Both the position numbers and the translations under genes were made by a program. This document shows, piece by piece, positions 53,101 to 56,100 of a DNA stretch of 64,000 bases. The notes below the pieces were generated by a model. That model was not told the origin of the DNA. It did no database searches and saw only the letters and a list, made by a program, of their open reading frames with translations. Position 1 is the first letter of the stretch; the number at the start of each line of letters is the position of its first letter. This DNA comes from Chrysomallon squamiferum (lineage: Eukaryota; Animalia; Mollusca): NCBI GenBank assembly GCA_012295275.1, contig CM022672.1:28148001-28212000 (forward strand), written 5' to 3'.

Positions 53101-56100
53101 TTGTGTTTTGTTATTTTTACAGCTGAGCAATGGTCTGTTCAGCTTGTCTGTTGGACTTGATGAGATATACACATTCACTACATTGGCCAGTGGTAACAAG
53201 GGACTTTATCCAAATCCACCTCTACCAAAGCCTTTTCCAGATTTGTACTTTGATGATTTTGAAAGTGGGTTTGTTTTTAAATCAAATAGTTAATAAAATG
53301 GTATTATCAAATGATCAAAAATGATTAAATTTAAAAAACCAAATAAGTATGAAATAAATCTGTCTTGGAACCATATTGTTGTTTTGTTGGTATAAATGGC
53401 TCTATTAAATTAAGCATTGTATACCAACATATGCTAATTTGAATAAATATCTGTTAAATTTAATTGTATTTAAAAACAAAACAAAAAAAAGTTCATTATT
53501 ATTATTTATTTATTTATTTATTTATTTATTATTATTATTATTTGTTGTTGTCATTGTTGCCATTGTTTACAAATTAACAGATAAATATTTCAGAATTAAG
53601 TAACTAATGTAACAGATCTTTTTTTATTTACAAAAAGATTAATTGTATATTTAAATGCTGGGCTACCAGAATGATTTATTACTGTGTCTACAGCATATCA
53701 AAATAACATGGAACCCAACAATCTAGCCCAGCAGATGGGTGTATTTGAGGTAATTGATGTAGGTGGCTCTCACGGGAATGTTATGCGCCAGACATTACTT
53801 CATAAGCCCACTTCTTGGTGTAGTGCAGAAAAACTGAACATTTCTTTCACTATTATTGGGAACCATGCTTGGTAAGACTTCCAATGATAGTCTTTTGAAC
53901 AGAGTCACAAAATCTCAAATGGCAAATTTCAGAGATATGATTGGCAAAATGATGAGTATTAATTGTTAGCATGCAGATATGACTGACAAAACTACGGTAT
54001 TAATTTTCAACATACTTAGGTGTGTTTCTTCCTATAGGAGGATACACAGAAAAGTTAATTTGTTCCAAAAAGAACAGAACATGAAGTGCAGGCCTGGTTT
54101 CCAGTTGTATGCTATTACTTGTCATCATTAATCAGTAATATTAAAATAATCATTTATTCAAATATTCTGAACAGTAGATATGTTGATAACCATAACAAAA
54201 TGTCACCCTCTTTAGAAGAATCTTTGTCATAAGAAAATTCCTTTTACTAATTTAGTCTGCTTCCAGATGACATATTATTGTGATTTTGGGGGAGGTTTTG
54301 TTCATTTTCTTCCATTCTCAGTCTGATTAAAAGCTCATTTTATTTCTATCTTTCCCAGATTGTTCAGAATTTCAAGAACCTTTCAATTTTGCCCAGCAAG
54401 TGGGCTGTTTTGAAATCAGAAAAACATCAGATCCCAGTCATTCTAAAGTGATGCGTCAGGTTATTCTCAACCCACCCATTCCTTGGTGCATTATCAACCT
54501 AGATTTTCCTATTTCTGTTCTTGGAAGTTATAATTGGTGGGTTCTGTTTTGGTTCTGTTTGTTGCTGTATTTATTTTTTGTACACTGGTTTCATGTCACA
54601 CTTTTTATTTTGTTGATCAATTAAAGGTATGTTTTTTTTGTTGTTGTTTTGTAGGGGTTTATCTAACATTTAATGATTTATCAAATATTTTGTATTATGG
54701 TTTGGTAAAAGAAAAATCTTCTAAAAAGTTTCTTATTAGTAGAGAAAATAGAACATTTTATGTTAACTTGTGATAAAGGTAACTTAAATTCCATTAATTT
54801 TTATTTTTATTTGTTAGAGAAAACATTTATCACAAATTTATTATCTACTCATTCTTTTTTTTATAAGTTTCTGACTTCAGTGATGAAAAACTAAGAGACA
54901 GCTTGTTAACAACAGTGATTTTTCAATCCAAAAATGCTTTAGAAAAGAAAATATTTCTCAGCCTTAGTTAGTCCATAGCCCAGTTTTTCAAGGATCTGGT
55001 GAATACAATAATAATTAAAAGTATTGTTCAACTGAAATATTAATGTTTTAAATCTTTAAAACAAATGTTCCTAGGTCTTGAGTGGGTTTCCTGCCAATCT
55101 GTGATGCTAGTGTTTGAAATGATTAACTCAGATAACAATTTTTCAAATTAAATAATGTCAAGTTGAGCATTTTACTTTAGAAATACTGAATTTTTTGTGG
55201 CTCTGTTCATTTTGTGTAAATTTATATATTTATAAGAACAGTGTTTTAACAACTAGCTTTTACATTGATTATTGATTAAGTTACAAATATGTGTATGAAT
55301 ATAACAAAGCTGGTAGAAAATGTTCAAATTACATTTTTTATGTGAAAATAAAGTTTTAATTAGTATTGAGAAACATTTAATGGATAAATTCAATTTGTAA
55401 TTTTTTGTTTTTTTATTTATGATTTAGGACTGATGTTTATGTTGAATCTGAAATGAGCCTTAACTCTGTGAATGCTTCTAATGGTGTATTTATTGCTGCC
55501 AGAGTGGATAAAGGAGGGTGTCAAGCATTCACGGCCAAAGGAATTTTTTTTTTTTTATTTCCTAACAAAAAGTATTACATTCTGGCAAATGATTTGGGTA
55601 AGTTAATATCAACCCAGTGTATTGTTGTTTTTCTAAACCTTGTTCTTTTTTTGTTTGTTTTTTTTTGTTCATTTTTTTTTTTTTTTTTTTTTGGTTTGTC
55701 TATTGTTTTTCTTTCTGTTGACATAGTAACAATAAAAGAAAAAATCTTAGCCATTCATATTCTCATGAACTTTTTAATTATTTCATGTTAAAGAAAGTTT
55801 AGGAACTGTTGAAAGTGAAATTATAAGTTGTCTTTTTTTCCAGATTTAATAATGACAGCAATTAAGAAAATTTAATATTTATATTTGTATTTAACACAAT
55901 TTTATTCAGTGTAAATTTGTTATTTCAGCACGGACTCAAGTTATTGTTGAGGGTATTATTCCACAGGTTAATCCAGGGTGGAACAAAGTATCTCTTTTTG
56001 TTGAGGTTAGTTGTCTTACATAAGTAAGATCATAAAAGTACTTATGCAATTTTTGAGTGATAGGTGTCCTAATCACCTTTAAAAATTGTTTAACATTTTA

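Follow-up and report, generated by a model that had tools for sequence, protein, structure and literature searches.

The window analyzed here, a stretch of 64,000 nucleotides of Chrysomallon squamiferum (contig CM022672.1, positions 28,148,001 to 28,212,000 of the forward strand), contains a galactocerebrosidase gene of glycoside hydrolase family 59 (GH59), hereafter called GALC-B, and we regard it as nearly certain that this gene splices either of two homologous exons, 15a and 15b, in a mutually exclusive manner between its exons 14 and 16. The pair likely predates the split between gastropods and bivalves, and the swap likely alters the enzyme's choice of aglycones or of lipid-presenting saposins; this combined view of splicing, age and effect is, on balance, the one we favor. 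The features concerned are as follows, in window coordinates.

41114..56341 (+): GALC-B, GH59 galactocerebrosidase gene with 18 exon positions, encoding 686 residues with either exon 15 (homologue-guided model)
53123..53264 (+): constitutive exon 14, with a phase-1 donor common to 15a and 15b (RNA contigs, gene model)
53694..53871 (+): alternative exon 15a, type a; sequon N-I-S at residue 525, 7 residues past the pocket Trp; 34 of 58 residues identical to the block of Gigantopelta isoform X1
54359..54536 (+): alternative exon 15b, type b; short NLDFP loop without a loop sequon; 43 of 58 residues identical to the block of Gigantopelta isoform X2
54998..55000 (+): minor cryptic donor in the intron between 15b and 16, joined to exon 16 in one of four RNA runs
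55428..55597 (+): constitutive exon 16, with a phase-2 acceptor common to 15a and 15b (RNA contigs, gene model)

RNA coverage of the region came from five runs of two studies, and four RNA runs of one study were used as assembled contigs aligned to 51100-56500; such contigs drop rare forms, their depth is a crude measure, and introns left uncovered were given no weight. The constitutive joints 12-13, 13-14, 16-17 and 17-18 were present in all four runs, as were the joints of exon 14 to 15a (53264-53694; contig depth 32.9, 15.2, 16.2 and 77.2), of exon 14 to 15b (53264-54359; 7.6, 2.85, 4.5 and 32.5) and of 15a to exon 16 (53871-55428), and the joint of 15b to exon 16 (54536-55428) was found in one of the four (depth 31.9). 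Both exons are used in RNA, and contig depth suggests that 15a is the commoner, taking roughly 70-84% of the two exon-14 joints. All four single-inclusion joints that the initial annotation proposed to count are thus present. The exclusive use it proposed is upheld to the extent that both exons are joined to 14 and 16, and neither the double-inclusion joint 15a-15b (53871-54359) nor the joint 14-16 that skips both (53264-55428) was listed among the contigs of the four runs, from which rare forms are dropped. Some points from the same material weigh against this reading. The 15b-16 joint was restricted to a single run, the contigs carrying 15b in runs X1-X3 continue into the following intron, and the missing 15a-15b joint, coming from the contigs of a single study, is weak evidence. 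Read-through from 15b to the cryptic donor at 54998 would meet a premature stop.

The two exons are each 178 nt long, preceded by AG and followed by GT, run from phase 1 to phase 2 and are open only in frame offset 2; they share 21 of 59 amino acids and 102 of 183 aligned nucleotides. Both match the start of the C-terminal lectin domain of GH59 (Pfam Glyco_hydro_59_C, 30.9 bits and E 3e-7 for 15a, 43.1 bits and E 6e-11 for 15b, curated cut-off 27) and align to the segment of mouse GALC ending RQVLNQRPITW. Coordinates, splice-site dinucleotides, frame and Pfam matches therefore agree with the earlier description of two diverged homologous exons with canonical sites, and the earlier statement that the neighboring paralogue GALC-A has a single copy at this position also holds, since tblastn finds only 19578-19399 there. 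An assembly merge of two loci, which the initial annotation had raised against itself, was rejected because self-BLAST showed no recent duplication touching 15a or 15b, because single RNA-library contigs (runs X1 and X3) span the end of 15a, the intron and 15b (53843-54388), and because the same pair occurs in Gigantopelta aegis. Pseudo-exons were likewise rejected, by the RNA joints and the Gigantopelta aegis pair. The donor of 15a is GTAAGA and that of 15b is GTGGGT; as a separate observation, the donors of exons 14 and 15b (53265-53277 and 54537-54549) are near-identical and non-consensus (GTGGGTTTGTTTT and GTGGGTTCTGTTTT).

The modelled path of GALC-B has GT-AG ends at all 17 introns, a stop near 56344 and intact catalytic and pocket motifs. 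The nearest protein is a galactocerebrosidase-like protein of Gigantopelta aegis, whose isoform X2 is identical to our b isoform at 515 of 686 residues and whose isoform X1 is identical to our a isoform at 506 of 686. The GH59 domains PF02057, PF17387 and PF21708 were matched at the exon level, where the PF17387 exon, a fragment, scores under the cut-off, and all three (a TIM barrel, a beta-sandwich and a lectin domain) were found on the Gigantopelta orthologue P0001. When aligned to mouse GALC via P0002, both isoforms carry counterparts of the motifs of E182, E258, G48, T93, W135, S261, R380 and W524, the roles of the catalytic Glu pair and the pocket residues being those described for the mouse enzyme (PMC4445328). 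By its domains, its motifs and the fold of its orthologue, GALC-B is a GH59 galactocerebrosidase, for which hydrolysis of galactosylceramide and dependence on saposin A are predicted.

What could keep the two exons apart was considered next to the frame. In the gene model, joining 15a to 15b creates a TGA at the junction, 424 nt upstream of the last exon junction, and skipping both exons leads to a stop 218 nt upstream of it. By the usual rule, premature stops lying so far before the last junction are targets of nonsense-mediated decay (NMD). The frame shift predicted earlier for inclusion of both or neither is therefore confirmed. Two truncated RefSeq models, judged by their protein ends only, look like such products: Patella X4 (484 residues) resembles the form that skips both exons and Mytilus californianus X4 (539 residues) resembles double inclusion, which suggests that splicing may be leaky and that surveillance matters. 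Steric exclusion was rejected; upstream of the 15b acceptor, the 487-nt intron between 15a and 15b has an AG at 27 nt and branch-like motifs at 22 and 33 nt, more than 450 nt from the 15a donor, and no distant branch point is indicated because these elements lie so close to the acceptor. Exclusion by incompatible U2 and U12 sites was also rejected, the donors GTAAGA and GTGGGT being unlike the U12 donor consensus used for comparison. The earlier argument that the 487-nt gap speaks against steric hindrance, leaving NMD or RNA structure, fits the motifs near 15b, the premature stops and the predicted helix described below.

We then compared the exon-15 block across species, looking up 21 protein clusters and comparing 25 groups of isoforms from the same gene or the same species. 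In Gigantopelta, X1 and X2 are identical outside residues 477-535, X1 being of the 15a type and X2 of the 15b type. A clean swap of the block was found in 18 of the 25 groups, which cover one brachiopod, Lingula, and 16 species of molluscs (Gigantopelta, four Haliotis, Patella, Babylonia, Pomacea, Littorina, Aplysia, Mizuhopecten, Argopecten, Mytilus galloprovincialis in two annotations, M. edulis, Crassostrea gigas and Dreissena). In one further group, that of M. californianus, isoform X4 has an a block and then a stop. Littorina, Patella and Mytilus have three versions of the block, and two fused models, Mytilus coruscus P0142 and Magallana gigas P0165, carry a and then b in tandem, the same order as in the window. 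The two types are conserved across molluscs much like ordinary coding sequence, as judged from protein comparison, because among 12 genera the identity is 0.48 for a against a and 0.52 for b against b (0.41-0.43 for a against b), matching the 0.39-0.56 of the flanking constitutive exons. For 21 of 24 exons, the average distance to exons of like type from other genera is smaller than that to the sibling exon.

In an exon tree of 70 rows and 59 columns, from which six environmental rows were excluded, the 14 a and 13 b rows need a single change (support 75/96), and one change suffices in 100% of 200 bootstrap trees, compared with a mean of 9.3 changes after shuffling the labels, where 0 of 500 shuffles were as low as one. 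A single duplication before the gastropod-bivalve split is thus likely the simplest reading, and we judge a single ancient origin of the pair within molluscs to be highly probable. The split is of Cambrian age. Neither Lingula row lies on the a side of the tree, so that the Lingula pair may well be of independent origin. Several observations count against so broad and old a pair. The other species are represented by annotation gene models, that is, proteins and not genomic layouts; the swap is absent from six of the 25 groups (Gigantopelta GALC-A, Liolophura, Octopus, Biomphalaria, Mercenaria and Physella); the Aplysia pair is a/a; both Argopecten exons and Mytilus a have a sibling as close as or closer than the same type elsewhere, with Mizuhopecten a level; the approximately unbiased (AU) test does not reject 15a and 15b as sisters (p 0.06); and the exon tree has 59 columns, an unsettled bootstrap and a/b labels preset by likeness to the window exons.

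A backbone tree built without the exon-15 block (54 rows, with six environmental rows and 14 sibling isoforms excluded) places a-only or b-only genes of Arion, Candidula, Biomphalaria and Liolophura among close paralogues or orthologues, and Potamilus b beside Sinanodonta a. Some of these may be unannotated pairs, and others may have a and b split into separate genes. Swaps at other positions were also noticed: exon 7 has three versions in Gigantopelta GALC-A and two in Babylonia, Littorina and Mercenaria, exon 11 is swapped in Dreissena and exon 6 in Mercenaria; the proteins carrying these exon-sized swaps are P0049/P0190/P0191, P0006/P0128, P0014/P0152, P0073/P0187/P0186 and P0045/P0171. In metagenomes, the loci L001-L011 are continuous intron-free GH59 genes 54-58% identical to mollusc protein, L007 being one 663-residue open reading frame with little else coding; these may represent retrocopies, transcripts or animal genes poor in introns.

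To see what the swap changes, we aligned the Gigantopelta a isoform with mouse GALC; W135 and E182 served to verify the numbering offset, which is +14. The positions of mouse R520, T523 and W524 fall inside the exon-15 block, in line with the earlier identification of the segment as the lectin-domain loop at the active site. The pocket Trp (mouse W524), which shapes the pocket of mouse GALC (PMC4445328), is kept in both 15a and 15b, so that in the alignment the pocket Trp is the same in both isoforms and the predicted change lies in the rim and the following loop. In the mouse complex, Q24 of saposin A bonds to T523 and R520, and mutation of Q24 blocks binding (PMC5764952, available part); at these two positions 15a has Lys and Ser and 15b has Pro and Pro. 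Among 16 pairs the loop carries an N-x-S/T sequon in 13 of 16 a exons and 0 of 16 b exons, an [FYT]-Pro motif in 16 of 16 b and 0 of 16 a, and Trp-Cys-Pro in 13 b exons but no a exon; the loop of type a is usually the longer by one residue. The initial annotation had called the two loops polar and hydrophobic; that they differ by type stands, and the difference is better put as a longer, sequon-bearing loop in a against a short Phe-Pro loop in b. The Krabbe mutation D528N (human numbering) adds a glycan on a surface loop of the lectin domain (PMC5031207, available part), and by numbering this would be the exon-15 loop.

Modelled with AlphaFold, the two Gigantopelta isoforms each take the GALC fold (mean pLDDT 87.8 for b and 89.9 for a), and the b model superimposes on mouse 3ZR5 with a TM-score of 0.90 and an rmsd of 1.7 A. 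For residues 511-530 the pLDDT is 65/76 in b and 87/92 in a, the latter with a short helix at 520-523; the input alignment was richer in a-type rows, and no claim about contacts was drawn from the models. Across animals, the variable residues of mutually exclusive exons tend to cluster near sites that bind small molecules or proteins (in the part of PMC7954323 available), which fits the location of the exon-15 swap.

A candidate for an RNA structure acting on the choice was found by an inverted-repeat scan and folding.

53896..53912 (+): 5' arm of a predicted 17-bp helix, 25 nt past the 15a donor
55193..55209 (+): 3' arm of the same helix, in the intron between 15b and 16; pairing would loop out 15b

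At -24.4 kcal/mol it outranks every other ungapped helix in the cassette (the next has -18.0) and is equalled in 1 of 200 block-wise dinucleotide shuffles, and its core has a pair probability near 1 when the whole cassette is folded. The best duplex between the two introns was matched by 0 of 27 shuffles, and none of 14 control windows taken from the two GALC genes yields a helix as strong, the best being a GALC-B window with a 17-bp helix of -20.9 kcal/mol. That the arms are the ends of a dispersed repeat was rejected, since at up to 3 mismatches these two are the only copies in the window. A 10-bp hairpin over the 15a acceptor (53656-53665/53724-53733, -18.0) was also rejected, being inside the shuffle range (mean best -16.6, sd 2.0). 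A second selector was sought and none was found, the best alternative partners reaching -16 to -17 kcal/mol. In the model, the helix is half of a bidirectional pairing design, with the downstream stem alone. Two further points weigh against a role of this structure: no upstream stem looping out 15a beats shuffles (21 of 62 were as good), and the helix is known from one genome. Among the best 80 of 506 metagenome loci, judged by match spans, there was no intron-bearing orthologue covering the cassette, the matches being continuous.

These observations can be put together as follows. The helix between the two introns would loop out 15b and favor 15a, the more abundant joint, and 15b would be chosen when the helix is unformed. 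NMD would clear whatever leaks through by double inclusion or by skipping. In the protein, the galactose pocket and the lectin-domain Trp would stay constant, with the residues at the saposin-contact positions R520 and T523 and the next loop differing; type a would add a predicted N-glycan and type b would expose a hydrophobic loop, short and with a Pro, and the isoforms may therefore differ in how lipid tails or a saposin reach the pocket. We hold a change in aglycone or saposin preference between the isoforms to be reasonably probable on the sequence evidence, and a role of the helix in exon choice, on the strength of folding, to be slightly better than even.

The main rival to a change in preference is that the pair is real and ancient, that the substrate range is the same, and that the swap tunes glycosylation, stability or trafficking only (lysosomal against secreted or digestive, or resistance to pH or proteases). 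This would suit the catalytic barrel and pocket Trp common to both isoforms, and the fact that the clearest type-specific feature is the glycan sequon; an added glycan at N277 is known to block lysosomal delivery of GALC (PMC4949656). Other data sit poorly with it, namely that residues are altered at documented saposin contacts and at the pocket rim, and that the hydrophobic b motif is fixed in all 16 pairs, beyond what loss of a glycan needs, and we regard this alternative as rather unlikely. A preference change nevertheless has to face evidence of its own. Mouse W524 is immobile even with bulky aglycones (PMC4445328), so the pocket itself may be unchanged; the sequon is missing in 3 of 16 a exons; and the switch in substrate or saposin is a prediction from sequence. 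A still bolder version, which we offer as doubtful, holds that the loop is a glycan on/off switch at the saposin docking rim, kept for more than 500 million years and perhaps since an ancestor shared with brachiopods, with b a saposin-fed lipid enzyme and a saposin-independent for soluble or dietary galactosides, that duplicates of exons 1, 6, 7 and 11 make mollusc GALC a combinatorial glycosidase diversified by splicing, and that type a is the natural, selected counterpart of Krabbe D528N.

The exclusivity itself might need no RNA structure, competition between splice sites together with NMD being sufficient and the 17-bp helix being a chance feature of one genome. Both aberrant products have premature stops far before the last junction, leaky-looking models exist in Patella and Mytilus, and a control window within GALC-B also yields a 17-bp helix; set against this, the helix surpasses all others in the cassette as well as the best control, lies close to the 15a donor, brackets exactly 15b and beats both sets of shuffles. 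We consider the structure-free explanation quite possible, at somewhat under even chances. If only 15a mattered, 15b being a duplicate in decay or one whose splicing is seldom completed, this would explain the 15b-16 joint in one run, the lower depth and the downstream cryptic donor, but 15b matches its Gigantopelta orthologue as well as the remainder of the protein does (75%) and better than 15a matches its own, and the b type is retained by all 12 genera in the set of pairs, which makes this reading very improbable. A history of several separate duplications, in which a-like and b-like loops arose by convergence, would agree with the AU result, the fairly alike scallop siblings, and the extra a copies in Littorina, Patella and Mytilus, which along with the other duplicated exons point to frequent exon duplication, and repeated origin is documented for mrp-1 (PMC7434440, available part). 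However, the exon tree needs only one change, in every bootstrap tree, and the a-then-b order is common to one gastropod and two bivalves; we consider such convergence improbable and keep the single ancient duplication as our preferred reading of the pair's origin.

To our knowledge, a duplicated exon at the exon-15 position is not known in mammals. Mammalian GALC (mouse structures 3ZR5, 4CCC and 5NXB, the last with saposin A) has in common with the mollusc enzyme the three-domain fold, the catalytic and pocket motifs and the pocket Trp; the mouse structures have one loop version, whereas in the mollusc loop the Trp is followed by a Cys and type a carries the sequon as well. The closest system is formed by exons 6a and 6e of coq-2 in helminths, annelids and molluscs, which like the GALC-B pair are homologous, mutually exclusive, of equal non-triplet length (134 nt) and conserved across invertebrate lineages, and remodel the substrate path of an enzyme; there, the switch between ubiquinone and rhodoquinone was shown genetically and lies in core helices, whereas in GALC-B the swapped part is a loop at the rim, within an accessory lectin domain, and a change of function is a prediction (PMC7434440, in its available part). 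The class of mechanism is thus already known and not new. In Drosophila serpent, a downstream stem loops out the second of exons 4.1 and 4.2 and is required for the first (PMC4691838, available part), and downstream docking sites are described in 14-3-3 zeta, Mhc and MRP1 (PMC6071210, available part). The predicted GALC-B helix is placed like these; unlike these docking systems, as far as the available text of the two papers describes them, GALC-B has the downstream stem only: upstream stems do not exceed chance, and no further selector follows 15b. Further enzyme isoforms made by alternative homologous exons, in unrelated enzymes and as far as the available parts of the reports go, are those of an oyster's alternative oxidase, in which an exon is duplicated (PMC5589949), and of ACSL6 with its gate-domain exons (PMC1543647).

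The initial annotation knew of no mutually exclusive exons in GH59. No paper on alternative exons in GH59 or on mollusc GALC isoforms was found in our search, which covered neither subscription journals nor supplements to papers on mollusc genomes, places where isoforms could be mentioned, and the available part of a paper on vertebrate GALC evolution (PMC12008523) contains nothing on splicing or molluscs. To this extent the claim stands; it gives way in that the pair is pan-molluscan and already sits in RefSeq as 'galactocerebrosidase-like isoform X1/X2' (Gigantopelta, Haliotis, Pomacea, scallops, mussels and oysters), the same exon pair from automated annotation, with no name or function attached.

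The pair is a natural experiment in which two evolved loops sit on an otherwise identical enzyme, at the sole element that the lectin domain of GALC lends to the active site and at the saposin interface, and 16 species pairs are available to show which loop residues matter. It would bear on how GH59 enzymes choose between lipid and soluble substrates, on how Krabbe mutations in the exon-15 loop act, and on why molluscs, which are free of myelin, keep several GALC genes. It is also a deeply conserved case of mutually exclusive splicing in molluscs with a testable intronic helix, accompanied by lineages that seemingly carry a and b as separate genes.

The 5' end of GALC-B and the paralogue upstream show further features.

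40660..40785 (+): candidate second first exon of GALC-B, with its own ATG, a signal-like N-terminus and a phase-0 donor, giving a 685-residue open product
19399..19578 (-): single exon 15 of GALC-A (tblastn with full-length homologues), on the a side of the exon tree and without the sequon

The candidate first exons 40660-40785 and 41114-41242 (+) are homologous, each with an ATG, a signal-like N-terminus, a phase-0 donor and an open protein, and tandem first exons also occur in gene models of Pomacea and Dreissena. A 52-nt inverted repeat (98%, 40022-40073/40796-40847) brackets the upstream first exon, its right arm beginning 11 nt past the donor, and a perfect 63-bp hairpin (40411-40473/40481-40543) lies upstream of that exon; these could be transposon ends or an RNA structure silencing the exon. 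GALC-A (about 16900-29000, -) and GALC-B (40660-56350, +) are head-to-head paralogues identical at 387 of 686 residues, with an exon of uroporphyrinogen-III synthase (PF02602, from 30600, +) between them, and their Gigantopelta orthologues lie on a common contig. In the window, tblastn with homologues found one exon 7 only in GALC-A (24489-24340). Intronic repeats include a 250-nt direct pair in GALC-A (94%, 22421-22670/25150-25398), an inverted pair in intron 1 of GALC-B (76%, 41722-42143/44010-44463) and a 33-nt tandem array (17338-17734). At about 7500-11700 (-), exons of another gene carry repeats with GQLG motifs, which we take to be of the RCC1 family.

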